64,000 bases of DNA. It comes from Gekko japonicus. Its lineage: Eukaryota. The notes under the pieces were generated by a model that saw nothing but the letters and a program-made list of their open reading frames with translations, was not told where the DNA came from and searched no databases. Each line of letters starts with the position of its first letter. Position 1 is the first letter of the stretch. Both the position numbers and the translations under genes were made by a program. Below are positions 2,555-63,528 of this stretch, piece after piece. The stretch covers positions 3,888,917 to 3,952,916 of the forward strand of contig NW_015165830.1 of the NCBI RefSeq assembly GCF_001447785.1. Reading direction: 5' to 3'.

Positions 2555-4125
2555 TTATTTATTTATCTACTTTTATCCCACCTTACCCTGCAAGGGGGCT
2601 CAGAGCAGCATACACACACATAAATTCCATAAAAACATCACCACATTAAAATTAATTCTAACACAGTTAATATTTAAGAGACCAATCTAAAATACCTGAT
2701 AATGATTAGTTTCATTCCAGTAGACCCATGCCAGGTAGGCGCAGTGAAGCACTTTGATGGTATAAATCAGCCGCTTCCAGTGCCAATTAATATAAATAGC
2801 ACCATGGCGCAACTGAAAGCAGGGTAGGCCAATGTTGTTTCACGTCCACTGCCTCGACTGAAGGCCTGGCGGAATAGCTCCATTTTACAGGCCCTGAGGA
2901 ATTGCCACAAATCTCACAGGGCCCTGATCTCAGTTGGGAGCATATTCCACCAGGCCGGAGCCAGGGCAGAAAAGGCCCTGGTCCTGGTCAAGGCAAGGCA
3001 GAAGTCTTTTGGGCCAGGGACCACTAAACAGTGCTGGTCAGAAGAGTGCAAGTCTCTTTGGGACACATATGGGGAGAGACGGTCTCACAGGTATGCTGAT
3101 CCCTGGCCGCATAGGGCCTTAAAGGTTAATACCATAACCATACCATACTAAATTGGCAACCAGTACTGCTAGCGTAGCACTAGCTGAATGTGCACCCACA
3201 CAGATGTCCCAGTTAGCAGGCATGCCACCGTATTTTGTACCAACTGAAGCTTCCAGATCAGGTTCAAGGGTAGGCCCGCGTAGAGTGAATTGCAGTAGTC
3301 AAGGCTGGAAGTGACCATTGCATGGATCAACATCACCAAGTCCTGGGAGGGAAGGTAGGGAGCCAGCTGCCTGACCCGCCCACGATGATAAAAGGCTGAC
3401 CTGGCAACAGTGTTCCCTCTAAGCTGAGTTAGTGTGAGCTAGCTCACAGTTTTTTAGCCTCTGGCTCACACATTTTTGCCTTCGCTCACGAAGGATGGCT
3501 CCAGAGCAAACTCATTCATGCAGTAACCAAATCACTTGCTCACAACTTCAATGCCGGTAGCTCACAAAGTAGAATTTTTGCTCACAGGACTCCATACCTT
3601 AGAGGGAACATTGCCTGGCAACTGTAGTGACTTGGGTCTCCATAGAAAGGGAGGCATCCAGGGTCACTCCCAGACTCTTCACCATTGGTGCTGGTCTCAG
3701 TGGCGCCCCACCATGGGCTGGGGGTCAGGTTCCTAAAACCATCCCCCCACAACCTCCGCCTTAGCTGGGTTTAGTTTCAGCTGGCTCTGTTGTAGCCAGT
3801 CAACCACAGCCTCCAAAGCCCTAACCAAAGTATCCAGGGTACAGTCCAGCCGGCCGACCATCAACAGATACAGTGGGGTGCCATCAGCATACTGGTGACA
3901 ACCCAGCCCAAACCCCCAGATTAACTGGGCAAGGGGGGGCATATAGAAGTTAAATAACATTGGGAGCGGATCACCCCTTACGGGATGCCACATACCATAA
4001 GATAACGTGGTGAAATCCTCTCCCCAAGGGCCACCCTCTGGCCCCGACCTTGGAGAAAGGAGGACAGCCACTGCAAGGCAGGTTCCCCATATCCCCCTAT
4101 TGGCAAGGGAATCGGTCAGAAGGTC
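2555..4125 (-). mobile_element. Degenerate L2-type LINE 3' fragment, interrupted by a hAT MITE
   Basis: ORF 3733-4071 has RT motifs (LFNFYM, HQYADGTPLY, QLKLNPAKAE); similar to the 8500-10075 copy; ends approximate. Confidence 0.8.
3408..3613 (+). mobile_element. 206-bp hAT-type MITE, copy 1
   Basis: TIRs CAGTGTTCCCTCTAAG / CTTAGAGGGAACATTG; perfect 8-bp TSD CCTGGCAA. Confidence 0.9.
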
Positions 4126-8499: not shown

Positions 8500-10075
8500 A
8501 TTTGTATCCCGCCTTGCCGGGTGAACTGGCTCAAGGCGGCGAACAGACATTAAAATGCAGTAAAACAATAAATACAATAAAAATACACAAAAGCAACCTA
8601 CATACCATCATAAAAGTGCTAGTAAGGACAGTACAGGTGATGACAGCATTCAGTATACGATCCCATAGTGGAAGACAGTATCCAGCGGTGTATCACAGGG
8701 CTATGAGATGTTCCGGTGGCTCATTCAACAGTGGTGGCTCCTAATTGAAAGCCTGGTGGAAGAGCTCCATTTTACAGGCCCTGCGGAACTGTAGAAGGTC
8801 CCGCAGGGCCCTGATGTCTCCGGGAGCTCATTCTACCAGTGTGGAGCCGCCACTGAAAAGGCCCTGGCTCTAGTAATGGGCAACCTGGCGTCTCTCGGAC
8901 CAGGGAGAGTCAGGCGGTTCTGTGTCCCTGACCTCAGTGCTCTCTGGGGCACATATGGAGAAAGGCGGTCCCTCAAGTAGACAGGCCCCCGACCATATAG
9001 GACTTTAAAGGTCAAAACCAGCACCTTGAAACAAATCCAGTAAGCTATTGGCAGCCAGTGCAATGCCTTCAGCACAGGTTGGATGTGGTCTCATATAGAG
9101 AGTCCCATTAATACCCTGGCTGCCACATTTTGCACTAGCTGCAGCTTCTGGATTTGAGACAAGGGCAGCCCCATGTAGAGAGCGTTGCAGTAGTCTAATC
9201 TCGAGGTGACCATAGTATGAATCACTGTTGCCAGGTCATTGCGTTTGAGGAAGGGAACCAGCTGCCTAATCAGCAGTAGATGGTAAAAGGCTGCCTTGGC
9301 AGTGGCTGCTACCTGGGCCTCCATTAATAAGGCGGCGTCCAGGAGCACTCCCAAGCTCCTAACTCTTGGTGCTGGCACCGGTGGCGGCCCATCAAAGGTC
9401 GGGAGTGGGATCCCTACCCCTGACCCGCTCTGACTCAGGCACAGGACCTCCGCCTTTGTTGGATTCAATTTCAATCAACTCAGTCTAAGCCAGCCCGCCA
9501 TGTCCTGAAGCGCCCACTCCAGGTCATCTGGGGTAGAGTCAGACAGCCCACCCAACAACAGATACAGCTGGGTGTCATCTGCATATTGATGACACCCTAG
9601 CCTTTGCCTCCAGGCAATCTGGGTGAGGGGGCGCATGTAGATGTTAGATAACATTGGGGATAACACCGCCCCTTGAGGAACCCGCAGACCAGCGGGTACC
9701 TCTGGGACATCTGTTCCCCTAACGTCACCCTCTGTCCCCAACCTTGGAGGAAGGAGACAAGCCATTGCAAGGCAAGCCCCTGAATCCCAGTATCGGCGAG
9801 GCGGTGGATCAGTAACTGATGGTTGACCATGTCGAACGTTGTTGACAGGTCCAACAACAACAGTACCACCATACCACCTCGATCCAGATGCCTCTGGAGA
9901 TTGTCTGTGAGGGCAACCAGTGCCGTCTCTGTCCCATGGCCTGGCCAGAAGCTGGATTGAAATGGGTCTAGCATGGAAGTGTCCTCCATAAAGCTCTGCA
10001 ACTGAATCGCTGCTGCTCTCTCAAGTAATTTGCCCAAATAGGACAAATTGGAGACCGGCCGGAGAGAATGCACAA
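8500..10075 (-). mobile_element. 5'-truncated L2-type LINE (RT and C-terminus, frameshifted)
   Basis: ORFs 9597-10190, 9475-9765, 9091-9474, 8833-9075 give RPVSNLSYLGK, GHGTETALV, VPQGAVLSP, QYADDTQLY, SRLDYCNALY, LHWLPI. Confidence 0.9.
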
Positions 10076-18877: not shown

Positions 18878-19439
18878 TAGGTATCTAGGAATGTTCAGTT
18901 GTGTCAGCATAGTAGAAACTGTGATGTCATATGTGAAATTATGAGAACAACAATTCTGTGCTGCATTAAAGGTTATTCCTGACAACTAATGGTGCTACAG
19001 AACTATTGATTGGGGCCTGTCTGCCTTACAGCCACACTTCACTTCGCTTCCTTCCTTCCTTCTCCATAAGGCAATCAAAGTTTGTGAAGAAAGGAAGAGA
19101 AAGAAGTAAATAACTTAGAGACTATGCACCTAGATTTGGCATATGTAGACCACTGCCTCTCATCCACTCCAATCTGTAGTTCCAAGCATATTGCATCTCA
19201 ATTAATGTCTCCCTTTATTTCTCCCCTTACATCTCTTGCCATTAATTTTTGATGACCTTTCCCATTCCCTGTTGCCCTTCTGCTGATGCTTGGGAAGAAA
19301 TGTGCTGGGAAAGTCAAATTCTAACTTGTGCATGGTCTGAGCTTCTGAAGTCAGGGCATCGATCCATCTAGCTAGTAGTGTGGAGCTGGTTCTTTAATGT
19401 CTCAGGCAGAAAAAGGTCTGTCCCAATTTCTGCTACCTA

Positions 19440-19957
19440 GGCCCTGGTCACACGGGCCAGATAATGCAAGGGGGGGAGGCGTGGCTGTTTGCCCTGGAGC
19501 AAAATAAAGCACAGTAGCCTAATCACACGGTCCCCCGAGTCTTCGTGCTTAGGCTGTTAGCTGGCTATCACACGGCTATGCTGGAGTGTGGCAAAGAAGC
19601 AGCACGTCAAGCATTTCGCATTTGTGCATATGCACAGTTTCGCGGAGCAGCAGTGCTTTCAGTTACGTGTTTGTGCGCATGTGCTTATGAAAAACATCCA
19701 GTTTGCAACGGGATGTGGACGGGCGCCGGATGCCACGGGATTCTAGCGCTCCCGCGATCAGACGCCCACCCCTGCCCCTCATTTTCTGGATACTAGTGCA
19801 CTTTCCAAGGTTTTTTTGTATTGCACATCTTCGGCGGGACGCCACAGGTTGGCCACGGGTGTGCTATGCTTCCCAGATGTTGCCATGTGATCGCGCCCCG
19901 AAAATCCACCTGACATTCGTGCCTTTAGCGTGGCAAATCCTCCGTGTGAATGGGGCC
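19440..19957 (-). mobile_element. PIF/Harbinger-type MITE, copy A
   Basis: TIRs GGCCCTGGTCACACGG / CCGTGTGAATGGGGCC; 3-bp TSD CTA; inserted in an old SINE. Confidence 0.75.
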
Positions 19958-20244
19958 CTAAAGTCTTTTTTTACCTAGAGATGCCAGGGATTGAATCTAA
20001 GACCTTCTGCATGGAACATATGTGCACCACCACTCAGCCTGACTGCCATGGTTAAAGAAAAGGGGCATGTAGGTAGCTAAATAAGGTAGCTAAAATAAAA
20101 TAAATAATAAAGTAGCTAAAATGAGCCGACAGCATAGATGGAGAAACTTCTTTGCTCACTCAGATGAGTGAACGGCCTTAGTTGGCTTGCTTAGCAGGTT
20201 CCATGAGTTGTCAGGTCTCTAAAACCCTAGATAAAACTCCCCAG

Positions 20245-20450
20245 CAGTGTTCCCTCTAAGCTGAGTTAGTGTGAGCTAGCTCACAGTTTTTTAGCCTCTG
20301 GCTCATTCATTTTTGGCTTAGCTCAGGAAGGAGGGCTCCAGAACAAACTAATTTATGCAGAAGCCAAATCGCTTGCTCACAACTTTAATTTCAGGAGCTC
20401 ACAAAGTAGAATTTTTGCTCACAAGACTCCACAGCTTAGAGGGAGCATTG
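20245..20450 (+). mobile_element. 206-bp hAT-type MITE, copy 2
   Basis: Same TIRs and body as copy 1; TSD CTCCCCAG / CTCCCTAG (7 of 8). Confidence 0.9.
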
Positions 20451-26192: not shown

Positions 26193-26398
26193 CAATGTTC
26201 CCTCTAAGCTGTGGAGTCTTGTGAGCAAAAATTCTACTTTGTGAGCTACTGGCATTAAAGTTGTGAGCGAGCAATTTGGCTACTGCATAAATTGGTTTGC
26301 TCTGGGGCCCTCCTTCCTGAGCTAAGACAAAAATGTGTGAGCTGGAGGCTAAAAAACTGTGAGCTGGCGCACACTAACTCAGCTTAGAGGGAACACTG
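26193..26398 (-). mobile_element. 206-bp hAT-type MITE, copy 3
   Basis: Reverse orientation; perfect 8-bp TSD CCTGGCAC. Confidence 0.9.
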
Positions 26399-26765
26399 CC
26401 TGGCACTTAATTGATTTTCCCTGTGATTAATTCTTTTATTTTAGGACACTTTTACCCTTTTCTAGGCAGATGAAGGTGACATCTCTGGCCCCCATCCCCC
26501 TTTAAACCCCCTTTGCACAGTAGGCTAGGTTGAAAGAGCATGACTGGACCCCAGCTACCCCTGTAAAGCTTTTTGGCAGAAGGGATATTTGCAACTATTT
26601 TCTACCAGGCCTAACTCCCAATTAAATATTAAGGTCCTATATAACTAATAGAGGTGTCTAAATTGTTTCTTACTCATTGGATGTTTGAAGGTTAGTAGAA
26701 GAATGAAACTGGCAACTGGTAGTACATTCACAGTCTCCTCAAACACGTCTCCCTTTTGTGAACAG

Positions 26766-41503: not shown

Positions 41504-42028
41504 GGCTGCGGTCACACGGAACATTAGCCACGCTACAGAGACGGAAGATAGGCGGATTTTCCGGGCGCAATCTCACCAGCATATCTGGGAAGCGTAGTGC
41601 TCCCGTGGGTCACCCAAGGCTTCCTGCCGAATACGTGCGGGGAAAAACTAGTACCTCTGAGGTACTAGTTTCCGGAAACTGCGGGACAAGGGCGGGCGTC
41701 TGATCATGTTTCCGGTGGCATCCGGCGCCCGCCCATGCCCCATTGCAAAAAGGTGTTTTTTTCCGGAGTCTCCAGGGATGCGCAGAAGCACCCAACGGGG
41801 CATGCGCATACTTCAGGTTCAATTAAAAAAACAAAACACAACCCCGTCGTGCCGCGCCGCTTCTTTGGCACGTCGTGTGATCGGCACCTCCCCCCTAACC
41901 ATGGGACCTCGACAGGACTGGGAGGGGATGCCTGATCGCGCAGTCGTGCATTATTTCGCTGCGGGGCAAACAGCCATTCCTCCCCCCCCCCCCCCCCCCC
42001 GCGATATCCGGCCCGTGTGACCGGGGCC
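41504..42028 (+). mobile_element. PIF/Harbinger-type MITE, copy B
   Basis: TIRs GGCTGCGGTCACACGG / CCGTGTGACCGGGGCC; flanks GTA/ATA; CpG-rich. Confidence 0.8.
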
Positions 42029-42053
42029 ATAGTTTGGCATTTTTCTGAAATGA

Positions 42054-48031: not shown

Positions 48032-48178
48032 TTAGTAAGTCAACTTTGATGCTTTCTTGTTATAACAAGGCCTTTCAGTCAATGTTGGTGCAGCATTTCT
48101 GAACAGAAAGTCGTTATCACTCATCATTAGAACCAGCTCCAGTTCCTGGAAATCCTGAAGTCTTGCAACATCTTTGTC
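48032..48178 (-). CDS. ANKRD40: ANKRD40 last coding exon (147 nt incl. stop)
   Basis: taaag|GACAAAGAT...; DKDVARLQDFQELELVLMMSDNDFLFRNAAPTLTERPCYNKKASKLTY*, matching the ANKRD40 C-terminus as recalled. Confidence 0.92.
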   Translation of the reverse strand, partial: DKDVARLQDFQELELVLMMSDNDFLFRNAAPTLTERPCYNKKASKLTY

Positions 48179-48282
48179 CTTTAAGGAATAAACACAGTAA
48201 GTTAGAAGCAATGCTCTAGGAATTATGCGGTATCTACCAACACAACAATTTTGCTCACCTTTCAGCCCCATCCCTTCCATAA

Positions 48283-48632
48283 TCTATATATCTAATAGCG
48301 AAGGCGCCCCCTGTGTGCGGATATCTAAATCCACACATCGGGGGCACCTGGGGGGCAGGGAGATTTTCCTGCGCACGTGAGACAATGCCTAGGTGTGCAG
48401 AAAAATCTGAAAACTGTAAAAAAATATAGGGGGAATATTTAAACCCCCCAAAAGTAACAGAGCGCCCCCTGCGCATGTGCAGGGAACGCTCTTAGAACGG
48501 CTTTGACGCCGCCAGAGAAGGGGAGGGGGTGGGGGGGAGAAGGCTGGGCTCACCTGCTGCCGCTTCTGCAAGCCGGGAGCTGTGGGGAATACTTCCCCCC
48601 CCCCGCGCGAGTATTGCGGGTCCCGCCTCTTG
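48283..48632 (+). mobile_element. Non-autonomous Helitron-like element (350 bp)
   Basis: A|TCTATATATCTAATA start; CCCGC...GCGGG hairpin, then CTTG|T end (variant of CTRR); no TSD. Confidence 0.65.
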
Positions 48633-50154
48633 TGTCTATTTAATTCTATGTTTTGTTCTTGGCCTTGAATCTCAAAGTGTTTTGCCAGTGCTGTGCTTTG
48701 AGGCTTTTTACAAGGAAAATGCTAACCACAACAACAAAGAGACCAGACACAGAACTTCTGACCTAACTTGCTGCAGACTGATTCTCCTGAAAGGATGGTT
48801 TATTGGCACAGCACATACTACTTTGCAGCCCTGCAAAATGGGCTTTCAGACAGTTTCCTGTAAGATGACACACCCAAACAGTACAATGGGGAGCTGAAAG
48901 TAATGGCTTCCAATAAGGCCTGACTTTCCATCCCTGAGCCAATCTGTCTCACTTGAATTTTCATGAAATATAAAACATCTGTACGATTATTAGCTTTTGA
49001 GGGAGGTAAAGTGCATGCCATTGCTTATGTCCTTGTCAAGGTGATTTTCACTGGGAATAAAAATATAGTGATTTACTGATTTATTACATGTAGTTACTCC
49101 AATCTAAGACCACTGTTTCACTGGAATTAGCCTGGGGTAATTCTGCATATGATCACAGTGGACAGTTTTTACAATGAGCTTTGAAAAGAGGTCCACATTT
49201 AAATATCTAGTTGCTGCCTGTTGGGAAAGAACGAAAAATAGTGGGTTTTGCATCCTAATCCACCTAAGGGACACAGGTGTGTGTAGAAGGAGGCTTCTGG
49301 GTGAGAAATTGTACCACCGATCCAACTTCAGGGACAGCATACACACATCCCCAAGTTAAGAACCCAGCTACTCAAGAAGAGAGCAAACACTGGTACTACT
49401 ATCAAGTGTGACCTGGGCTACATACAAACAGCCAGATCTAAATTAGAGTCAGCAAAAGGAATTAAGTAATCTGTGTTCTAGTTAAAGGCACAGTTAAGGA
49501 GAGCAATTTCGTTTATAAACAAAATTCAAAGAAGCTGACCTTACAAAACTGAGGCAAGAACAAGGCAGTGGGTTTACCTCTTGGACTGGGATCACCAGTG
49601 ATTGGGTGAAGCCTGTTTATCTAGTACTAAATCAGATTAGCTCAGCAGGTTGAAGGTAACTAGGTTCTTGAGGGATTCTAGGGTGAGCTAAGGGCACAGA
49701 GTGACTAGGGAAGGAATGTCCTGCTCTTGTCTGTCTTGCATAGCAAAACACTTATTCATTCCAACAGAATATCTAAACAGGGATTTCAGCTGTACAAAAG
49801 CTCTGTATGTGTGTATGTGTGAGAGAGAGAGAACAATGCATTTTCCTTCCTAGCAGTGATGTTAATTTAAAAAGAAATATTTAGAACGTTGCATGTGAAG
49901 TTATTTGATGCTTAGCAAGACTAGTGTGTGCAAAATGTTCACTGCAGAGTAGTCCTGCTGACTTTATGAAGATCATGCTGAGAGATCAGCAGTATCTGTA
50001 AATCTAAGTTGTAAGGAGAGGCTACTACTACATGGCATTTCTGAATGTAACTGGACAGTTTAAATAACCATGTAAAGGAAATGGGTTTCACTATTAGCTG
50101 CCAACAACAACCAGCCTAGTTTACTTCTTCGGCAGGGTGACTCATTTTGGTAAG

Positions 50155-50568
50155 ATCATAGAATAATAGATTTGGAAGGTACCTCCAGGGTCATCTAGTC
50201 CATCCCTCTGCACAATGCAGGAAATTCACAAATACCTCCCCCCACACCCCCAGTGACTCCCACTCCATGCCCAAAAAGATGACAAAAAATTTCCAGGATC
50301 CCCAGCCAAACTGGCCTGGAGGAAAAAATGCTTCCTGACCCCAAAGTGGCAATTGGCATTTTCCTGGGCATGTACGAAAGGGCCACAAGAACTAAGCATT
50401 AAGGCAACCTTTCCTGCCCTCCCTCTCATGATCTGCCTAAATTCACAGAATCAGCATTGCTGTTAGATGACCATCTAGCCTCTGCCTGAAAGCCTCCAAA
50501 GAAGGAGAGACCACCACCTCCCGAGGAAGCCTGTTCCACTGAGGGACTGCTCTAGCTGGTAAAGAAGG
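50155..50568 (-). mobile_element. CR1-type LINE 3' end
   Basis: atcatagaataatagatttggaagg...gggtcatctagtcc is the reverse of a CR1-type 3' terminus. Confidence 0.7.
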
Positions 50569-50623
50569 TTCAATGGATGAAAATGTTTTGACTCCTGCAA
50601 GACTTTTGATAATGTCCCACATG

Positions 50624-52424
50624 GGACTTCCGGTTGATGGCAGCGCGCTAGCAGACTCACCTCCCGGACCTCCCAGGGGAGAAGCTGCGCTCCAGCCGAA
50701 GGAGGGGGTGCGCAGGCTCGTCTCCCCCCCAGGGACCCGGTTGAAGGGACCCTGGCCATGGAACTTCTGAGAGGTCGCCTCTTCAATGGCGTAATGCCGG
50801 AGAATTGAGGCGCCTTTCCGTTCCGATGGTTCTCCATGCTGCGAGACCGAATGGGCTTAGTGACGCCGACCGGGGCAAGCGCAGGAGATCGAGCGTGAGA
50901 TATGGAGTGTAATCGAGGTCGGAAGACCAATTATGAACGTGAGTCAGACTATAAGCATTGATTAAAGAGAAAAGAAAGCTCCCCACCCTATCCCACGGAA
51001 CAGAAAATCAGGCGAGCGGGGGAGGGACGCCTCCCATGCGCATGAATTTATGAGCGAATGAGGGGGGGAGCAGAAGAAAACGTGGTTAAAACTGTCAAGG
51101 AGTACTTACCAAAGCGAGTCTGAGTGTTTGAGTGCATATTCAGAGACTTTTTAAAAATATGCGAAAGTAAACAATCGATAAAGATGGCGGGGAAGAGGAC
51201 GGAGAAAGAAAAACTTTTGAAATCGAAAGTAACTGAGAGCCAATGAGCTGGCAAAAACTTTGGCAGAATCCATGCGCCCCCTGATGGACCAGATGAATAA
51301 CTTCAAAGAGCAGATGACAAAAATGACCCAGTGCATCACCACTCAGCAAATGCAGATAAATGAGACTTTGCAAATGATGAACCAAACAGCTGAGAAGGTG
51401 AAAGAAGTGGACGCCACTGCACAAAAGGTGAAGAAGAAAGTACAAAAACTGGAAAAGAAGCAAGTTTCTACAGAAGATCAGCTGCTACAATTACAAATGG
51501 AAAAGGCTAACATGATTCTTCGCTTCCAGGGCATGCCAGAGACCAAGGGAGAGAATCTGAAGAAAAGGATGAGCAAAATATTGGCCCCAGTGACAGATAT
51601 GAAGGCGGAACTTTTGCTAAGCGAAATGGATGTGGCCTTCAAGTCATATTCAGGATACATAAAGAAAAATTATCTGCCTGGGGAAATTGTAGTAAGATTC
51701 TTGAAGAGGCATGTGAGGGATGCAATCCTGAAAGCAGTATCTGGAGCACCCTGAGAGACGGGGAGAATGCCATCAGAGTACTAAAAGACATTCCATGTGA
51801 AATAAGACAAAGAAATACAAGAATTAACTCTCTTTCTTCAGACAAACTCAATAGGATACAGATGGCTAATTCCAGAATGCATTACCTTCAAAATTAAGGA
51901 TAAAAAAGAAAAGATTGACTCTGTTCTGAAAGCACGGGAATTTTTGAGAGTCCAGCTGGGAGGGCCAGTGGAGGAAGAAAAAGAAGGGATGGACAGTAAT
52001 TCCAGGGGTGAGCTAGACTCGGGATCTTCCGGAGAGGACTCTCTTTCAGAGAAAGGGCCAGCGGCTCCTAAAAGTCCTTATAAACTGCGGAAGAGACTGG
52101 GAAAAGAGAAGTGAAGGCTGAAGGACACTGAATTGTGCCTTTGAGTTTTTGAAATGAGATGCTTTGGGGTATTTCTTAATGAGGTTAAGATTGGGAAAAA
52201 AGTTAACAAAAAATATATTTGACCTAGTTCATAATGGGATTAACGAGATTAAGATTTGATGTATGCTTAAACTGATTAGAAGATCTCCTCTCTTAGGATT
52301 TTAGTCATTAGTGGGTATCTTTGCTTTGTCCCTAGATGTAGTCCCTTACCTTTTTTCTGCTGTAGTTTGTAGTGATTATATATATATTAAAAAATCCCCT
52401 CCGGGGGTCATAAAAAAAAGAAAA
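50624..52424 (+). mobile_element. ORF1-only L1 derivative (HAL1-like, 1.8 kb)
   Basis: CpG-rich 5' region, frameshifted L1 ORF1-like coding 51184-52114, short 3'UTR, A-rich tail, perfect 16-bp TSD GATAATGTCCCACATG. Confidence 0.8.
51184..52114 (+). pseudogene. Disrupted L1 ORF1p-like coding region (coiled coil, RRM-like, C-terminal domain)
   Basis: Heptad-rich stretch, then LRFQGMPETKGENL...EIVVRFLKRHVRDAILK; frameshifted continuation IRVLKDIP...YRWLIPE. Confidence 0.75.
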
Positions 52425-53679
52425 GATAATGTCCCACATGATATTCCCACAAGGAATAGGAGAGGGGCGAGTATACCTCCAAGAGACGGGACTGGAAAGC
52501 TTCAGATGTTCCAAGATGCAGTCAATTTCAGCCAGTGTGGTAACAATTAGGGCATTACTATCAAGGTGGGAGGAGGAATTAAATGATATTCCACAGGAAT
52601 CCGTCCTGATTAATAGTCTGGGTGAAAGGATTAAGGATGTATTTATAGTTGAAGATGAACAGTGATGAAACCGTGGGCCAGATTTAAAACCAATAAACTT
52701 GAAACAAAGTTCAAAATGCATAGAATGTATACCTGGGGGAAGGGGTCGAAAGAGAAATGTGCAAGCCTGTAGAACTGCCAAAGGCAACAAATCTGGGTTG
52801 CTGTGTTGGGCAAAAAGATTAGTTCTGCCCTTGCAGCTGCTCACAATCCCCCTGGGCAGGAGCATGAAGGTGAGAGGCACAAACTCAGCAGTTGTATGGA
52901 TTTGTTTTCACAATGGAACATTAGCAAAGGAGACAATCTGATGTACACAGGCCCGAAGCAGTTTAGATCTGCCAGTTCCAAAGACTGCACTTTGAACTGT
53001 TCAAGGGGAGAATACAGAGAGGCAAAGCAATTCCTTGATGACAAATATCACAACTCATTTAACAAAATAAATTAAAAGATGAAGCTGGGATTTCCAAGTT
53101 TCTAATATGCATACCATGCCACATGCTTCCTGATGTGGTTTACAGACTATATTGTCTAATCCTACTCAATGGGTCATACTACATACTACATGGGTGTCAG
53201 AAAGAAAATGCTGAGGCCGGATTTAGGCTCCATAAAGGTAGGACACAGCCATGTCAGAGCATGAACAACAGTTATATTGCGTTCCTTTGAGCCCAGTTTC
53301 AGTTCTCAGGTACATTGTTTGTTCTGATCTAGAAACAGTTGCATGCAACATGTAGTAAGTAGTGTGGGGAGAAAAGTCATGCATAGTACTCCTGAATAAT
53401 ATGTGAGGGCAGGAATTCCTGGAACTTCAAACAAATGGATAGGAATGTACATCTTTCTCTGCATTGTGTGGAGCCAATAGGGAGTTCATAATGCACATTT
53501 GGGGAGTAATATATCTGTCCTGTCCCTGCCAATCTGTACCTATTCATCTGCGTGGGTAGGCCAGTTTATTTGAGATCAGCAATGACCAGGGTCAAACTGC
53601 AACTGTAGAAGGAAAACAGGAATTCTTTAGATTAGCCCTTTTTGCCCACTGCAAGTAGCATCCAATATAAGTTTACATG

Positions 53680-54186
53680 GGCTGCGGTCACACGGAGCAT
53701 TAGGCATGCTAGAGAGACAGAAGATAGGCGGATTTTCCGGCCTTGATCTCACCACCACATCTGGGAAGTGTAGAGCTCCCGTGGCGAACCCGAGGCTCCC
53801 CGCCGAAGACACACTGTTAAAAACCGTGTAATGCTGTTAAAAACCGGTAACCGTGGGGCAAGGGTGGGCATCTGATCGTGTTTCCGGTGGTAGTTCTGGC
53901 GCCCGCTCATGCCCCCTCGTATAAAGGTGTTTTTTTTTTCCAACTGTCCATGGGATGCACACAAGCACCCAACGGGGCATGTGCACACTTTGGTGTCCGG
54001 AAAACAAATCACCCGTTTGCTGCGCCGCTTCTTTGCCGTGGCGCAGGATTGTGGTGTGCTCGGCACCTCCCCCCTTCCACGGGACCTCCATGGTACATCT
54101 GCTGGTGCAACCGCGTGTTATTTTGCCCTGGGGCAAACAGCCACGCCTCCCCCCCCCCGCGATATCCGGCCCGTGTGACCGGGGCC
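53680..54186 (+). mobile_element. PIF/Harbinger-type MITE, copy D
   Basis: Same TIRs as copy B and closely similar body; flanks ATG/AAG. Confidence 0.8.
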
Positions 54187-54244
54187 AAGGTATAGCGGTG
54201 CATTCAAATCCCCCGCTGTGTGAACAATCTAACTGGACGTTACA

Positions 54245-57200
54245 AGAGCCGCTGCTTAAAGACTGCTAGTAAGGAGTTCGCTGCCGGCCTCTGCGAGGAG
54301 GAGGTGTGAGAACGTAGCTCTGAGCTCTGAAGCTATTGGATAAGTGACCTATTTTAGTCCTTAACTTCTATTCGTGTCTGTTTGCTGCCTTCATTTGCCT
54401 CCAGTTGCTTATGACTGTTTAATGACTGTTGGAGTGGAGAGTTCACTGCAAGCTGACTTATAACACCAATTATGGGAGCCTGTAAACGCTCGGAAGACGT
54501 TGATTTACAACCGGCCATGAAACAAACAAAGATAGGGGAGTTTCTCTTATCAGATAACACTGTTTCCTACAGCATTCCTGTTGCTAACCGCTTTTCTCTG
54601 TTGCTTGAGCTTGACCTTGATGAGGGAAGGTAAAGGTAAAGGTTTCCCTTGCTCGAAAGCCAGTCAAGTCCGACTCTAGGGTTGCAGTGCTCATCTCCGT
54701 TTCAAGCCGAAGAGCCAGCGCTGTCCGAAGACGTTTCCGTGGTCATGTGGCCGGCATGACTAAACACCGAGGCGCACGGAACACTGTTACCTTCCCACTG
54801 AAGTGGTACCTATTTATCTACTTGCAATTTCTTGCTTTCGAACGGCTAGGTTGGCAGGAGCTGGAACTAGAGATGGGAGCTCACTCTGTCATGCGGCACC
54901 CTGGGTCTCGAACTGCTGAACTACCGACCTTCCACAGCCTGCAGTTCAGCATCTTAACCACTTGAGCCACCGCAGCTCCTTGATGAGGGAAACAAAGAAG
55001 CAAATTCCACAGCTATGTTGAACACATCACCGTCTTCTTCCTCTCAGAGAGCCGGTAGAACTTTCAATGCACAATTACCCTGAGCTTTAACGGTAGGCAA
55101 AATATTTGATTCATTAGAAGAGGTGAAAAACTCACTTGCTGAGCTGACACAGACACTGCAAAATTTGATGAAGCCGAAGAGCCTTAAGTTTGGTGTTCCT
55201 CCTGCAACTATGTTGAGAAAGTCTCCTCCTCGTGATGTGGCTTCCTCCAATTCACTCTCTGCTTATCCATAATCAACTCAGTCACAATCCATGAACCAGG
55301 TTGTAAGGGTGTCTGGAAATTCTTCTAGCCTATCTTTGCAGTCCTGTAAAGTGTGCCTCTCAATTTACGCTTACAGAGGAATATTGCCACTTTGGAATAC
55401 AAAACAACTAGTTGCCAGTCACATCAGGTCTCTATTTAAAGCTACAGTACGTCCTATGGATCTTGTTAAAGTGGAACTATTAAATTCATCTAAACACTCT
55501 GCACGAGTTCTGCTTTCTTTTGGCAGTCCAAATTTTCCCTCCCTGTTCCTTGCCCAGAAATTTTAATTGTATCCAAAAGGGATTGTACCAACAAGAGTTT
55601 TTATTGATGCTGAAGTCGCTCCCCTTTTTCCTAACCCGCCCCAGGTTTTTCTGGCAAATCAGGCCTCTGATTCTGGGGTGAAACTGACTTGTGAGGAGCC
55701 TCAATTCCCATTGGCGGATGCCTCGGAACTGATAACCTGGGATTAGCCAATCCTCGACCAATGATTCGGTTTGTTTGGACAGCTCAAAAGAGGATGCCCT
55801 ACTGAGATCTTTTGATAACCTTCCAGAGACAACTCTGCAGAAGATTTTTGATAGATTAGAAAGGCTTAGAAATAGCCTGCTAAAAACATCGTCTAACAAG
55901 AGGACAGATGACCCAGGAAATTCCTTTCTTGCTCCCATAACAGCAAAAACCTTCAACACATCTATTCCAAGATCTACTCAAGAACAACGCCCTATGGAAG
56001 TAGAAAATTACTCATATAAAAGACAATGTAATAATGGGCAAGTCAGGAAACTCCCTCTAAGGAGGACTAACGGATGTATTTGTTTGAACCCTGAGGATGC
56101 CTTAGACCTCATTTCTCCTATTCCATGACTAGATGGCTCTTCAGCTCACATGAACCCACATATCAAAATTCTATCTTGGAATATTACAGGATGGAGTAGT
56201 AGGTTAAAAGATCCACTGACCAGATCATTTTTATCAAATGTTCATATTATTTTGATCCAGGAAACCTGCGTCATGGGAGCTATTAAATTATCTGGTTTTG
56301 ATGTATATGAGGTAAATGCTCATACTAGCTCCTCTATGGGTCAGCCAAAATCTGGTTTAGCGTGCTTAGTTTCTTCAGCACTAAAATCTATTAAAGTTTC
56401 CCTTATTGCATCTTGCCGGTATGCATTAGCTCTGCTTTTATACTTTTCAACACTCCCACTTATAATTGTTTCATTCTACTTACCCCCACTGACAATACAG
56501 AGGGATATTATAGCACTCTGAAATGATCTGGGAACCTTTCTGGATACAATTATAGATCAGTTTCCCAGAGCTTCATTAATACTTGCAGGTGATTCTAATG
56601 CCCGTATTGGTCGAAATGATGATGTGCTCTCTATGCAGGGAAATATCAGCCATCTTCAAGAGCTTTCATACCCATACTTATTTGAAAGAATGTCTAGGGA
56701 CCATAGCATCAACTTTTCTGGAAAACAGTTAAATGTGTACTGGATCACAGACTAGTGATCCCATACAGGTACAGCAAAGTGGATACGGCTGGTGATTATA
56801 CGTGTCTGAAATACAAGGGAGCCAGTGTAGTCGATTACATGATAGCCTCACCAAATCTGCTTCCGTGGATCTGCGAGTTTAAGGTAGGGGATTATTGTGG
56901 AGGTGATCATCTTCCACTGCAACTCACTATGGCTTTCCCCCAGGGTAGTTTCTCATCATCCGGCCCCCATCCGAGTGTTTTCAGCGGGGAAATAGATGGA
57001 GTCCAATTAGATGGACACCAGAATTAATTCCCTGCCGTGTTGAACATCATGTCCTCATATGACTGTAATTTAATTCTTATTGAATCCATGAATCAGACAG
57101 ACCCCCCAGAACATGATAGAATACCTATCTACTAATTTAAATCTTTTAAAACCAGTTTGCTTAAAACCTTTAAGACCTTGCAGAACTGAACAGAAAAATA

Positions 57201-57356
57201 TTTGGTTTGATGGGTAGTGTAGAAGATTTTTTAGATTTGATTATTTTGACTGTAAATTTTGATTGTAAAGTTCGTATTTTGAGGCTAATGCTGTAGATCC
57301 ATGTTTGATAATTGAGCTTAAGACCTTTGGTCTTAGAAGCTAATAAACATAAGAAT
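54245..57356 (+). mobile_element. Internally deleted two-ORF LINE (RTE-X-like, clade uncertain): ORF1 and APE endonuclease, no RT
   Basis: APE motifs ILSWNITG, ILIQET, GDSNARIG, SVVDY, GDHLP; ORF1 remnant 54472-56128; AATAAA near 3' end; 58-bp flanking direct repeat. Confidence 0.75.
54629..54979 (-). mobile_element. Sauria-type SINE nested in the LINE ORF1
   Basis: tRNA-like head and (ACCTTT)n tail on -; TSD TTGATGAGGGAA; close match to 61116-61465. Confidence 0.85.
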
Positions 57357-58188
57357 AAGGTATAGCGGTGCATTCAAATCCCCTGCTGTGTGAACAATCT
57401 AACTGGACATTACAGGAGCTGAAGTATGAAAACACAGTGGTACAATTTTTTAGCAATGAAGAGCAACATCCATAGAACCGTAATGTAATATACTTAAAAG
57501 GAAACTCTGCTGAATTTGTGAAACCAATTTCTGGCTTTCAGCCATATGTATCAGAGAATCTGATTTTTATTACCACCTGAATTGACTATACAAATTGATG
57601 TTTAACACATAACAAAGTTTTACTGGCAGTGAAATCTGCAATTTGACTTAGCATTAGCACCAAAATGTCAGTGTCAAATATGAACTTCAAAATCTGCATT
57701 GATCACTGAGTGGGAAATAACATCCTTAACTTCAAGTTTAACTGTTCCATTTCTGGGCAAGAAACACTTGGGTGTTTGTCACTAACAGAATCTTGGATGT
57801 ATGCTTTTGCTTTCTAAACCAATGATTATTATTAAAATGCAACTCTTGCCAGTGCTGTAAGTGGACGTTAGCAAACAATATACATGTTAATGCATAAGAT
57901 GGGACCTGATATCACTTGTGATCTGCTATGCTGAATGTAGCCCATCAGCTATGTATTTTGCCTGTTAGGTCAAAGTCCTCCCTTTTTTGCTACTTTCCAA
58001 GGGACCTCCCCTCCTGCTCAAAAAGTAGGTAGAATTATTAAACTCTTAGCAGGCCTCAGTGCATAGCTGGACTACCTTCAGTTGGTGGATCACAATTTGC
58101 AGAGGCCTTGCATTAAGAAATAAGTAACTAATTTAGGATATGAAAACCTGAAGCACAGCTAGATCTTTTAGAAACTGAAGGTTCTTAC

Positions 58189-58370
58189 CTTCCTTAATAC
58201 TGTATTGGGAAGCTTCCTAATTTTCTCCACATGTTCTGGATTCACCCCCAGTTCACAGCAGCTCACTCGGAGCAGTTCGTTGTAAGTCAGTTCTTGTCGG
58301 TCCAGTTCAATTTCAATGAAGTCATTCTCTTTAAGAGTGCGGTTCTGAATTCTGACCTTTAGCACCAGTT
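58189..58370 (-). CDS. ANKRD40: ANKRD40 penultimate coding exon (182 nt)
   Basis: cctag|AACTGG...AGGAAG|gtaaga; ELVLKVRIQN...ENDFIEIELDRQELTYNELLRVSCCELGVNPEHVEKIRKLPNTVLRK. Confidence 0.93.
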
Positions 58371-59695
58371 CTAGGTTAAAAACAAACAAACACAAAACAC
58401 CCCACAATATGAACAATTTTTTAAAAAGACATTCATGCCTCTCAGGCATTACTATCACCAATAAAGGGTCTGAGCCAAGTGGCCATAGAGGCACTGACAG
58501 AGCAGCTGGGACTTGGCTTGGCTTGCTTCTAGCCACCAATCACCTCCCCTGTAAGTTAAATGGCCAGCTGGCCCCAGAAGTGTGACTTCCAAGGACAAAA
58601 TGAGCAGGACTGCACGTAGTCATTTTATTGTCATTACATCGCAAATGGTTGCCTCCATTCCTCTTGCTATGCTCTCTTTCTCATTTCAATGTGATGCTTG
58701 CACAGGAGCCAAATGTGGCACCAGCCAAAGGAGTAAGGGATGCACCAGTTCCACCTAAGCCAGAACACCAGCAAGGGGGGGAAGGTCATCAGTTATTCCC
58801 TTCCCTTCCCTTGTGAGTCTTGTCTTTTTAGTATGTCACCCTGACAGAATGACACCTCTCTTTTTATTGGTGTGAAGGCACTTTGGTAGATAATGGCTTG
58901 AAAAGCAGGGCGTAAACAAAAAGCAATAGTTAGATTTCCAGACCAAAAGCCCTTCCCACCAGCGTGCAGAGTCTTTGCTATGGGAGACCCATGTTCAGAC
59001 CAGAAGCTGCCCTGGAAGGCACAGCCATAAGGCATCCTCCTGCTGCCAGGGAACTTGGCCTTTAGTGTATCAGCAAACGTGTCTCCTCGTCAATGAACCC
59101 TTTTCCACAGCTCAGCTTTTGGAGTCTTATCACTGGCCACCTGCAAGAGCATGATGTCTTTCAGACGAAAGTGTAGACTGCTGCTGCTTGATTACAAGAC
59201 TGCCCAGGAGCAACAGGTGAGAAAACTGGAATATGAATCTTGATTACAGGGTTGATCCTGTCCTAACCTACAGGTGTCCATCTTACCATGCTTATAACAA
59301 GAACTGCAGTGAATAGCTACTATATTTGAGTCCAATGCAGGCAGCTTCTGTGAAGACTCCCATGCATCACTTGGGGGGGGGGAGTTATCCACAAGCAATA
59401 TTAATTTACCATCTGAATTTCTACCAAAACATTTCCAGCAAAAGGAATCAATGCAATTCAGCAAAGGGATAGTAATAAATGCCACACTGCATGACAAGTT
59501 ATTTCTATAGATACAACTGTTCACAGCCCATTGATATTAACCCCTATATATCCAGGGCAGCTATCATCAACTGTGGAAACAAAAGAGAACTGCTGCACAA
59601 GCATTTCCACAATCAACAAGAAACCTTTTAAATTTCCCTTATGAACCACTGTATTTGGTTGGCCTATTTGGAACATCAGAAAGGAAACTAAAAAA

Positions 59696-59901
59696 TTATG
59701 TTCCCTCTAAGCTATGGAGTCTTGTGAGCAAAAGTTCTCCTTTGTGAGCTACTGGCAATAAAGTTGTGAGCAAGCGATTTGACTACTGCATAAATTAGTT
59801 TGCTCTGGAGCCATCCTTCCTGAGTTAAGACAAAAATCTCTGAGCTGGAGGCTAAAAAACTGTGAGCTAGCTCACACTAACTCAGCTTAGAGGGAACACT
59901 G
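59696..59901 (-). mobile_element. 206-bp hAT-type MITE, copy 4
   Basis: Same body; left TIR end damaged and no TSD visible. Confidence 0.85.
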
Positions 59902-60015
59902 GAAAGGACCAACACTGATGAAGGGTATACCAAAGGACAATTTGTTCTCACCGCTGTAACCCGAGGAAACGCTAGGATAACTTGAAGGTTTGTATCTTAT
60001 ATCTGTTGAGGTTAC

Positions 60016-60486
60016 CTTGCATACTACTGACGGGAAATGCTCCAGTGAAGAAAAAGGGCTGAAATCCTGGGACAGGTGCAGCACAACAGCCATTTTTTTG
60101 CTGAGCTTCAGGCTGTTTAGGTTTAGCTGGAGTGGAGAGAGTCCTGCTTGGAGGAACAGGCATTTGGGGAAGGTGACCGTTCTGTATTGCAGGCTCTGGG
60201 CATTCTGCCTGGGATGATCCAGGTGTGTCCCCAACAGGAGGAGACTTTTCACGTTGCGACATGGCAGTGCCAGGCACCTGGACTTGAGGTAAAGACACGA
60301 GGCAATCCTCATTGTGCTGTTCAGAAGAAGGGGAAAGTCTTCCATTCGGAGAGGAAGAGGAGATGCTGGTAGTGCTGCTGCTCATGGAGTTATACACATA
60401 AGGGAAAGGCGGGTTAGCTAAGTAGCTGGGGATAATGGGCAACGCAGAGTCTTTCTTCACGTCCGGCAGTTCATCATCATCTTCTG
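60016..60486 (-). CDS. ANKRD40: ANKRD40 central Pro/Ser-rich exon (471 nt); ankyrin-repeat exons lie beyond the window
   Basis: ttcag|CAGAAG...TGCAAG|gtaacc; EDDDELPDVKKDSALPIIPSYLANPPFPY...FQPFFFTGAFP; phase 1-1 fits the next exon. Confidence 0.9.
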
Positions 60487-61115
60487 CTGAAAAAGACAAA
60501 GACAAACAAATTCTCGCAAAAGCCACTTCTGATTGGATAAAGAATACTGAAGTTTGGCAAGAACATGGGGGGGGGGGGAAGATGTCCAACACAGAAGGCA
60601 GATTGTTGCCAAGCAGCAAAGAGTAAATAACAATTATAAGTAACAATGAATGAGCCACAGATATGCTGCTTGTACATTTCTTGTGTTAATGTAAGTAGTG
60701 CCTGTGAATTACAGTTGATTCTCTGTTTTGTATCAGGACTACGCCTTTTCAAGAGCAGATGTGACCATATGCAAAGAAATTCACCTGCCCAGATACTGCA
60801 GAAAAATTACTACTTAGCATGTAGCAAATCACTAAGTCAGGGTTCCTTTGAGAGGAGAACTCACGGGGCAAGGGTCTATAGACAAACATTATTGGTTTTA
60901 ACAAAGAACTATTCGGGCCCTTTACAACTCAAAATCCTATTTATGGAGTTTATGTTCCTAGGAGTCCTCTTTTAACTTAGAGAAACTATGAAGGATGTTA
61001 TCCCTCAGGTTACAACTTTTACAGAGCAATCCGTGGGGGGTGGGGGATGGGAATAGGCAGCCTACTGACTCCTACGCTGGTGTAACTCAGATTTATGCAC
61101 ATGTAAGGGGCATTT

Positions 61116-61465
61116 GGAGCTGCGGTGGCTCAAGTGGTTAAGACGCTGAACTGCAGGCTGTGGAAGGTCGGTAGTTCAGCAGTTCGAGACCCGAGTGTGC
61201 CGCATGACGGAGTGAGCTCCTGTCTCTAGTTCCAGCTCCTGCCAACCTAGCAGTTCGAAACCAAGAAATTGCAAGTAGATAAATAGGTACCACTTCGGTG
61301 GGAAGGTAACAACGTTCCGTGCACCTTGGTGTTTAGCCACGCCGGCCACATGACCACGGAAACATCTTCGGACAGCACTGGCTCTTCGGCTTTGAAACGA
61401 AGATGAGCACCGCAACCCTAGAGTCGGATTCGACTAGCTTTCGAGCAAGGGAACCTTTGCCTTTT
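61116..61465 (+). mobile_element. Sauria-type SINE
   Basis: A box TGGCTCAAGTGG, B box GTTCGAGACC, ACCTTT-type tail, 12-bp TSD TAAGGGGCATTT. Confidence 0.85.
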
Positions 61466-62176
61466 TAAGGGGCATTTATGCTGGCACAGGGCATGAGCAG
61501 CACAGCACAGCACAGTGCACTTCAGCCACATGCTGGTGGAGTGATGGCACAAACCCATGCCAGCAGAAATGTGGGCGTGCCAGGGTGTGTGTCACCAACT
61601 ATTTGGCTCCCAAAGCAGTTTCACCATGGGAACGCCCCCCAGGACAGGCATAGCCAATCGGCAGCCATAGTAACTTGGGAACCCAAGCAGCTCAGAATGC
61701 CAAGTGTGCACCCAACCAGCCCATGCCAGCACTGCCTTTCCCCAGTCCCCAATGATGGCCCACCCCACCCTACAAATGGTTCCAGGAGGTTGCCCCACAA
61801 CTCCAGAGGGAGGGTGCATGGCATGGAATGCTGTCCGATAGCTCCCTGCTATGCAGACTTAGAGCTAACACACACGCAACTCAAGGGTGGGCAAAACATA
61901 GGCAGGCACCTAGCACTGCCGGGCAAGCACTTGGGGGGAATGCACCACCAGGAGAGCAAAGTCCACACTCTGTGGCTGAGCTCTCCCAGATCTCAGGCCC
62001 CACAAGTACAGCAGCTTGTCCGCTGGGATCCTAAGGGTCAGCCACGCAGGAACACGTAAACAAGGCACCCCTTTCCCAACCCCCATTCCTCCTCTTGGCC
62101 AACAACACTGGAACGAAGCTGCACTGAACACAGCATCTCCTGCTCCTGAACCCAGCACCTGGGGGGGGGGCAGGAG

Positions 62177-62382
62177 CAGTGTTCCCTCTCAACTGAGTTA
62201 GTGCAAGCCAGCTCACAGGTTTTTAGCTTCCGGCTCACACATTTTTGTCTTCACTCAGGAACGATGGCTCCAGAGCAAACTAAATTATGCAGTAGCCAAA
62301 TCACTCGCTCACAGCTTTAATGCCAGTAGCTCACAGAGTAGAACTTTTGCTCACAAGACTCCACAGCTTAGAGGGCGCATTG
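62177..62382 (+). mobile_element. 206-bp hAT-type MITE, copy 5
   Basis: Same body; perfect 8-bp TSD GGCAGGAG. Confidence 0.9.
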
Positions 62383-63528
62383 GGCAGGAGTGTGCCCCCC
62401 CCCCAAGACACACACGGACCAGGCCATTCAGTGCATCGGGGGCTGCCTGACGCAGCTGCCAGAGGAAGGGACCAAAGGTGGTGCCGGGTGCCCAAGGCTG
62501 CGTGTTGCACCAGCCGGCAGTGCCCCCCTTGCAACAAACGCTTCAAGCACCTGGGAATCCCCTCCCACCTGAGTGCCAAGTGATCCCACGTGATGGCCTA
62601 ATCCTGCCCTTGCAGGTGCAGAATGCCCTGACACTGCTGACAAGGCGCATCTCCAGGTACACAGTGATTCTGACAGAACGCTGAATGAAGTGTGGTCTGG
62701 ATTCTGCCACCCGGGGGGGGTCCCCCCCTTGTGGCATCGGAGTGCCAGACGGGGTGTCCTCATTGACCGAATGCCTGACAAGGTGCCAACAAGGAATGCT
62801 GCCAGCTGCTCCACCGTGTATTTTCCCCGTGCACAGGTGCCAATCCAACCGGGACAGACATCACTACCTCTATCAAAGCAAGACCCACCATGTGTCCTCT
62901 CTGCAACAACAGAAGCAGGCCCTTCTCTTCCTACACCCATCGGGAAGGTGCCCCTAGCACCAAAGGACCGAGGGGGGTTCCGCATGTCAACACCGTAATC
63001 CCTGTCTTGGTCCCCTCCAATAAAGCTCATCCATTGTGTGCGTCCCAGGTGTTGGTGCTTGTTATGGACTATGGGAGGTGGGAGCACATGGGGGGTGCTG
63101 CGCAAGACACACAATCCTCGCAGACACAACACAATCCTGACAATACTGTGGCCGCAGCAATGGACACAGATGGGTGGAAGGGAAAGACTATGCGACAAGC
63201 GGCCATTCCCCTAGCTAAAAGCACAGACCGCACACCCAGAAACTGCAGGGCCACGTTAACGTAGGATCAGCTGGGGTGCACCCTGGAGGAAGACGTCCTG
63301 CCACAGCAGTGAACACATACGCAAATGCCATGGGCACTCCTTCATGGATTGGCCCTGGCTATGGTCCCTGGGGCCAGCATGAGCTGATCCAGGAACCGTT
63401 ATGCAAATTACACTGTTGGCATAAGGGTCTGTCACATCACTGAGGCTGGGTGGGCAGCATTCCATGCTGCTGGGCAGAGATGGTCAGTTTCAGAGGGCAG
63501 TCCCCTCTGGAGGCCCGCTTGGCCTCCA

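Follow-up and report, generated by a model that had tools for sequence, protein, structure and literature searches.

How is the second open reading frame (ORF2) of a bicistronic long interspersed nuclear element (LINE) translated? The answer is established for only a handful of elements (L1, SART1), and the question is raised anew by a decayed RTEX-like non-LTR (long terminal repeat) retrotransposon in a 64,000-nucleotide stretch of the Gekko japonicus genome (NCBI RefSeq assembly GCF_001447785.1, contig NW_015165830.1, positions 3,888,917 to 3,952,916 of the forward strand; hereafter, the window). ORF1 and the endonuclease region of ORF2 lie in one frame in this element, separated by a single TGA that is followed by CTAG, and the original prediction was that the parent family might make an ORF1-ORF2 fusion by programmed stop-codon readthrough. 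Judging from the DNA and from related predicted proteins, we give roughly an even chance to the view that the parent LINE used programmed UGA-CUA-G readthrough between its in-frame ORFs; this and the other probabilities of mechanisms given below are judgements, not computations.

The junction between ORF1 and ORF2

Re-reading of the sequence bore out the proposed layout: the ORF1 stop TGA (56126-56128) is followed by CTAG (56129-56132), and the frame continues into the endonuclease (ILSWNITG...ILIQET). Positions 56123-56155 read CCA TGA CTA GAT, then GGC TCT TCA GCT CAC, then ATG AAC; in the wider junction (56117-56182) they are preceded by CCT ATT and followed by CCA CAT ATC AAA and ATT CTA TCT TGG AAT. 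Upstream of the TGA, the same frame is open for 130 codons (55736-56125). This segment is the genuine end of ORF1, as it is homologous to the pre-endonuclease regions of three related predicted proteins, P0003, P0013 and P0121; in P0121, the homology is continuous with that to the segment 55273-55743. One hallmark of readthrough, an ORF that continues in frame beyond a single stop, is seen in the window copy and also in P0003; another, a leaky context, is provided by UGA-CUAG.

The context of this stop, located at the ORF1/endonuclease boundary, is the strongest known vertebrate readthrough motif (PMC13517186; this and the other papers are cited for their accessible portions). According to the same source, UGACUAG supports readthrough and is present in 23 human genes, OPRL1 and MDH1 among them, and UGACUA is found in chikungunya virus (CHIKV) and Sindbis virus (SINV), which upholds what had been stated for human genes such as OPRL1 and for alphaviruses. 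The heptamer itself is ordinary: the window contains TGACTAG 8 times, close to the expectation of 7.6. For any given stop, the probability of being a TGA with CTAG behind it is about 0.42 x 0.0036 = 0.0015, and among the six listed stops of the window copy only the one at the junction has this context. AQP4 is a further UGA-CUAG readthrough gene.

The window copy carries four other in-frame stops, three in ORF1 (55081, 55270 and 55564) and a second TGA, 56519, inside the endonuclease, as well as four frameshifts (near 55744, 56734, 56976 and 57026). TGA 56519 stands where the relatives have Trp and, by comparison with them, plainly appears to be a decayed Trp codon, so a TGA in this copy can be plain decay. 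With one stop of this kind in so heavily decayed a copy, the copy alone therefore proves nothing, as the original prediction itself had cautioned.

If readthrough was programmed, the parent vertebrate RTEX-like LINE would have carried ORF1 and ORF2 in one frame, interrupted by just one UGA, in the leaky context UGA-CUA-G. The majority of ribosomes would terminate there and release an RRM-type ORF1 protein of about 430 amino acids; in a few percent of cases the UGA would be decoded as an amino acid and translation would continue into an ORF1-endonuclease-reverse transcriptase fusion of about 1550 amino acids. ORF1p would thereby be made in large excess over ORF2p, as happens with gag-pol in gammaretroviruses. 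Plausibly, the parent codon was TGA and not TGG, the DNA of the family conserves CTAG, readthrough occurs, and the fusion is the functional product.

Possible traces of the junction in related proteins

Conservation of the junction was read from predicted proteins as proxies, not from the DNA of family copies; a blastn search of a plasmid collection gave no match to the LINE family. The relatives, 131 in number, come from a search of 1.84 billion representative proteins and include proteins from the named species Naja naja and Rhineura floridana. The closest one is P0003 (47% identical), in which a single frame leads from sequence homologous to ORF1 into the endonuclease. Against codons 56096-56149 (18 in all), its 15 gap-free registers were compared by minimum nucleotide distance, and the best of them places Trp-Leu-Glu (W-L-E) on TGA-CTA-GAT, with a distance of 17 versus 25-34 for the others; 0.36% of 20,000 shuffles were as good (p=0.0036). 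A global alignment without frameshifts selects the same register, its score being reached by 2 of 60 shuffles. The length differences on either side of this register amount to 6 and 8 codons, and the frame is kept. A Trp would result from one transition in TGA, or from a gene caller using table 4, and the Leu-Glu that follows is, at the protein level, compatible with CTA-GA. Two other readings of P0003 were tried and rejected: a register with R-I-N on the stop (p about 0.09-0.13) and a two-frameshift reading that would restore an ATGA start (p=0.30 for the best 8-mer, with the alignment unimproved).

Two further patterns are seen among the relatives. In the 19 proteins that extend at least 25 residues upstream (the run-through set), W-L is found 16-26 residues before the Trp of SWN in three, P0003, P0016 and P0065, compared to a null mean of 0.43 (p=0.0036); one protein without W-L, P0125, was missed by the filter. 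Among 13 vertebrate-clade proteins with short N-termini, three (P0008, P0025 and P0026) start with Met-Thr-Ser (MTS) and a fourth, P0028, with MTI. These starts lie 14-19 codons before the Trp, which is the distance of the ATG at 56125 that overlaps the stop in the window copy. Thr followed by Ser or Arg from the second residue is enriched in the vertebrate set (p=1e-4) and occurs in 0 of 18 non-vertebrate proteins. M-T-S would be TGACTAG read in the -1 frame; TGG-CTA would give M-A-S. If the family is in frame and each such start stems from one frameshift, 1.3-2.7 MTS-type starts are predicted, a rough count from the frameshift rate of the window copy. The W-L-E of P0003 and the MTS starts, two different kinds of by-product, thus converge on a single heptamer in a single position and suggest that TGA-CTA-G is conserved. 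Starts within or after the first endonuclease motif, found in 49 of 79 vertebrate-clade proteins including the near-full-length P0132 and P0012, are expected if ORF2 has no dedicated ATG.

A number of observations weigh against this interpretation. At the amino-acid level, the W-L-E register is not the best, with a BLOSUM sum of 1 compared to 5 for another register (shuffle p=0.26), and MAFFT and BLOSUM alignments of P0003 gave different registers. The Trp of P0003 also fits a sense TGG, because TGA 56519 is a decayed Trp. Conservation is read from predicted proteins, and P0013 is an NCBI gene model. An earlier filter, without P0003, P0016 and P0065, gave W-L in 0 of 17 proteins, and P0003 enters both the register test and the W-L test. 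The upstream parts of P0016 and P0065 have no detectable homology to the window ORF1, and P0016 has Arg after W-L, so the G at +7 is broken. An upstream Trp is followed by Leu in only 3 of 15 cases, and neither Leu followed by a residue with G-first codons (6/19, p=0.78) nor any single-step residue followed by Leu (4/17, p=0.92) is enriched. The W-L and MTS tests were both chosen post hoc. In addition, the 12-13 short N-termini are grouped at lengths of 11-20 residues, lengths of 6-10 being absent, which looks like the mark of genuine start codons; Met is found there also in the full-length P0004 and P0078 and in invertebrate RTEX ORF2s. Finally, no significant stimulatory RNA structure was found 3' of the stop in the decayed copy (z -1.06 and -1.11), although such a structure is dispensable at some UGA-CUAG sites. 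Upstream of the stop, the structure score is z 0.32.

Other explanations of the junction

Several other mechanisms have to be weighed against programmed readthrough. Ribosomes could terminate at a real in-frame stop and reinitiate at ATG 56150, 21 nt further on, in the manner of L1, and any readthrough would then be incidental. The conserved MNP of P0003 favors such a start, as do the many relatives in which a Met precedes the endonuclease Trp by 10-20 residues, the L1 precedent of reinitiation across a spacer (PMC5972666) and the TAA-A-ATG junction of a LINE-like locus outside the family, L025. Yet reinitiation leaves unexplained the CTAG, the Leu-Glu after the stop position in P0003 and the MTS enrichment; ATG 56150 lacks a G at +4, and the relatives that group with P0132 have no Met upstream. 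We regard this mechanism as unlikely. A less probable one takes its cue from ATG 56125, which the original prediction did not mention and which overlaps the stop exactly (A-TGA): the parent ORF2 would have begun there (M-T-R/S) in the -1 frame, and an indel specific to the window copy, between 56128 and 56150, would have aligned the two frames. Starts at the matching distance in P0008, P0025, P0026 and P0028 and a mild enrichment of A-initial second codons (10/18 non-vertebrate, p=0.017; 6/13 vertebrate, p=0.09) are in line with it; SART1 has an overlapping stop-start coupling, and the window copy does carry four frameshifts. In this copy, however, ATG 56125 and the endonuclease are in different frames, while AUGA or UAAUG coupling calls for an overlapping ATG in frame with ORF2. 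The A-UGA scheme therefore requires a frameshift here (about 0.045) and, in P0003, a frameshift as well as a change of the stop to Trp; in the P0003 alignment, allowing frameshifts gave a gain of 0 at penalties of -4 and -5 and of 1.6 at -3. Furthermore, an MT start would be expected in most of the 37 relatives that have the first motif but is seen in only four.

The parent could also have had a single long ORF with TGG (Trp) at 56126, the TGA being ordinary decay of the window copy, which we consider about as improbable as the A-UGA overlap. That the position is Trp in P0003, that P0013 also crosses it without a stop, and that the same Trp-to-TGA change is seen at 56519 speak for a single ORF; besides, 19 of 37 relatives run at least 25 residues upstream, and no ORF1 protein ending at the junction stop was found among 131 + 5 + 84 matches. 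With a single ORF, however, the CTAG and its position at the boundary would be a coincidence (0.0036), and the -1 frame would yield M-A-S instead of M-T-S. No protein longer than about 1240 amino acids was found among the close relatives (a weak search with the read-through query returned no longer protein at E<=0.001), and the near-full-length ORF2s P0004, P0012, P0078 and P0132 have no ORF1 extension. Most improbable of all is that TGACTAG serves as a 3' splice acceptor for a subgenomic ORF2 mRNA starting at ATG 56150, comparable to the spliced ORF2 mRNAs of L1. The pyrimidine-rich run at 56112-56124, followed by CTAG, would suit an acceptor, but an out-of-frame ATG (56133) comes directly after it and such a mechanism does not require frame continuity. 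Programmed readthrough, as originally proposed, is thus left with an in-frame relative carrying W-L-E and a motif that seems recurrent, and it is weakened by the Trp, which may be a Trp codon, and by the conserved Met of MNP. The junction is a real feature of an otherwise ordinary dead RTEX-like LINE, and modest, indirect evidence suggests that a junction of the readthrough type is proper to its family.

Clade affinity of the element

The full-length relatives have an APE endonuclease and a reverse transcriptase (RT) in ORF2, as detected with Pfam. P0004 and P0006 carry Exo_endo_phos (PF03372), and the window endonuclease aligns to both; a family profile including the window domain matches the structures of the L1 endonuclease and APE1. 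The decayed window endonuclease taken alone had no Pfam match and nothing relevant in a PDB sequence search, and eight window fragments gave no relevant Pfam match. The RTs of the relatives form a single clade (support 0.946) apart from the L1-type, RTE, I-type and CR1/L2-type enzymes in a tree of 45 of 57 sequences (12 without the anchor motif were dropped) that included no named reference; their consensus matches, by eye, RTEX-2_NV in the accessible supplement of PMC3708506. No YADD-type motif is found in the window copy, from which the RT has been deleted, and the copy is linked to the relatives by an endonuclease tree of 106 sequences. Judged on the relatives, whose RTs are separate from the zf-RVT-bearing P0169, P0186 and P0187, the element does not belong to L1 and appears to be RTEX-like. 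The original prediction had taken L1 as its comparison point; the clade is a different one, whereas termination-reinitiation in L1 itself holds (PMC5972666). The accessible supplements of PMC7140322 and PMC11203168 contain no RTEX label, and those of PMC7140322 no TGACTAG.

RRM is the usual domain of ORF1 proteins (PMC3905857). In a model of 55273-55743, the order of the secondary structure elements is beta-alpha-beta-beta-alpha-beta (E-H-E-E-H-E), at a mean predicted local distance difference test (pLDDT) score of 49, and the best structural matches of this pLDDT-49 model are RRM domains, with the SHARP RRM in first place (Z 7.0, root-mean-square deviation 2.7, 79 residues aligned). With low confidence, ORF1 may thus have an RRM-like fold. 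Foldseek with the model returned nothing at E<=0.001, no L1 ORF1p chain is among the 50 structural matches listed, and an ESM Atlas search with an ORF1 stretch gave no usable match.

Similar junctions in other LINE clades

A scan of genome contigs yielded 26 LINE-like loci (L001-L026), of which 21 were examined; none of the 26 belongs to the LINE family of the window. They are eukaryotic LINE-like sequences on contigs recorded as bacterial or archaeal, and contamination is the probable source. The end of ORF1 and the start of ORF2 could both be seen, by eye, in seven loci (L003, L005, L009, L012, L013, L014 and L025; L004 was ambiguous and excluded), and three of these (L003, L005 and L009) have one stop between in-frame ORF1 and ORF2. 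L003 and L005, which are related to each other and have an esterase and a CCHC-like motif in ORF1, show a single TAG-GAC-A (L003:2568-2574, L005:2573-2579) followed by more than 120 open codons to the endonuclease; the downstream region of L005 folds well (z -2.88) and that of L003 does not. Both are candidates for UAG readthrough. The clearest candidate observed is L009, where ORF1 ends in TGA-CAA-CTA (L009:1360-1368), a match to CARYYA, in frame with an ORF2 whose first Met, at residue 216, lies past the start of the endonuclease at residue 89. All three are CR1/L2-group-like, not RTEX; they show that this architecture exists in LINEs and therefore raise the prior for readthrough. The broader view, that vertebrate RTEX LINEs use UGA-CUAG fusion readthrough and that other clades have independently adopted UAG-GAC or UGA-CAA-CUA, falls somewhat short of an even chance.

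Two loci have other layouts. In L025, ORF2 starts one base past the ORF1 stop (TAA-A-ATG-ACC-ATG, L025:1214-1223), an arrangement of the reinitiation type. L008 (1707-5618), a member of the RTEX clade, has a frame of 1303 amino acids in which the endonuclease is preceded by about 220 residues; upstream of this frame, a separate ORF1 was not seen.

The LINE copy and its surroundings

The insertion measures 3.1 kb, has no LTRs and is flanked at both ends by a target-site duplication, as is typical of LINEs; at 63 bp, the duplication is unusually long. The short interspersed nuclear element (SINE) inside ORF1, presumably a Sauria SINE, is flanked by a 14-bp duplication (54615-54628 / 54978-54991), with 363 bp inserted in total. 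No other copies of the LINE were found within the window. Coordinates of the features are collected in Table 1.

Table 1. Features of the RTEX-like LINE copy and of its ORF1/ORF2 junction (window coordinates)
Feature	Position	Strand	Basis or remark
5' copy of 63-bp target-site duplication	54187..54249	+	95% identity with 57357-57419
Decayed, internally deleted RTEX-like non-LTR retrotransposon	54250..57356	+	Duplication borders; homology to relatives
ORF1, about 431 codons without the SINE	54472..56128	+	Homologous to P0121, P0003, P0013; start ATG 54472
SINE inside ORF1	54629..54977	+	92.9% identical to inverted copy 61116-61464
RRM/ferredoxin-like domain of ORF1 (low-confidence model)	55336..55617	+	Mean pLDDT 49, core blocks 49-66
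ATG overlapping the stop (A-TGA), -1 frame	56125..56127	+	Reads M-T-R, closes after 24 codons in the window copy
ORF1 stop TGA + CTAG, candidate readthrough signal	56126..56132	+	17 codons before Trp of SWN; W-L-E at this register in P0003
Seven stop-free codons, from stop to next in-frame ATG	56129..56149	+	15 codons in P0003, the difference keeping the frame
In-frame ATG (MNP), candidate reinitiation codon	56150..56152	+	Conserved in P0003
APE endonuclease of ORF2, decayed	56165..56945	+	Aligns to P0004, P0006; TGA 56519; frameshift near 56734
ORF2 remnant and 3' end, no RT	56946..57356	+	Homology stops near 57108
3' copy of 63-bp target-site duplication	57357..57419	+	95% identity with 54187-54249

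The LINE lies antisense within the last intron of a host gene that resembles ANKRD40. The exons of this gene are on the minus strand (window 48100-60685) and include sequence at about 58168-58350 and, toward lower coordinates, from about 48178. Directly to the left of the LINE is an element of about 510 bp with terminal inverted repeats (53674-54192), probably a non-autonomous DNA transposon, which has relatives at 41504-42029 and 19434-19949. A decayed, coiled-coil-rich ORF at 51180-52114, with no ORF2 visible behind it, presumably resembles an L1-type ORF1. Elsewhere in the window are another decayed LINE RT fragment (about 8746-9801, minus strand, with YADD at 9585) with related pieces at 2859-4108, and a repeat of about 205 bp in five copies that are 87-93% identical (3405-3614, 20244-20450, 26193-26399, 59698-59901 and 62175-62383).

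Comparison with known systems

If the parent LINE did use readthrough, a mechanism would be added to the few known for LINE RNAs, with a predicted ORF1-endonuclease-RT fusion protein, and ORF2 annotations that start at the first ATG would be wrong for such families. If this held across clades, gag-pol-style readthrough would be a recurring, overlooked strategy of non-LTR elements, yielding an uncleaved fusion without a protease.

L1 translates ORF2 by termination-reinitiation and SART1 by UAAUG coupling (PMC5972666); inter-ORF spacers of L1 are treated in PMC5381506. Like L1, the window LINE is bicistronic, with a short spacer, an in-frame downstream ATG and an ORF1 that may be of the RRM type, but it belongs to another clade and has one stop, a readthrough context and a spacer of 21 nt instead of 63 nt. 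It shares with SART1 (PMC5972666, PMC3708506) an overlapping start and stop, A-TGA; unlike in SART1, this ATG and the endonuclease are in different frames, and a search for structure downstream of the stop found none. The clade RTEX, to which the human relics L4 and L5 belong (PMC5753468), has the APE and RT domains seen in the ORF2s of the relatives. In contrast to some RTEX elements, which have an esterase (PMC3905857), the window ORF1 appears to be RRM-like; invertebrate members have their own ORF2 Met, and an in-frame UGA-CUAG junction is undescribed in the portions of the RTEX literature covered.

Among cellular genes, the readthrough sites of OPRL1 and MDH1 have a heptamer identical to that of the window junction. 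The MDH1 site, UGACUAGAC, compares with UGACUAGAU in the window; readthrough of MDH1 is 7.8% (PMC13517186), and the window site is a candidate by its sequence. Among mobile elements, 2A ribosome skipping occurs in non-LTR retrotransposons (PMC3708506), so these elements do use translational recoding, albeit by another mechanism; no NPGP-type motif is visible at the window junction. No account of readthrough from ORF1 into ORF2 of a non-LTR element was found in the accessible literature searched, most subscription papers and Repbase notes lying outside its scope, and the accessible text of PMC13343379 had no match to readthrough terms. The closest parallel is gag-pol of Moloney murine leukemia virus (MoMLV) and of the LTR retrotransposons Tca2 and VdLTRE5 (PMC13517186, PMC3441728), where a structural and an enzymatic ORF are likewise in frame across one stop; those are viruses or LTR elements with a protease that cuts the fusion, whereas the window element is non-LTR and no protease was seen in it. 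Readthrough is thus already known for retroviruses and some LTR retrotransposons, and what is plausibly new here is a non-LTR candidate.

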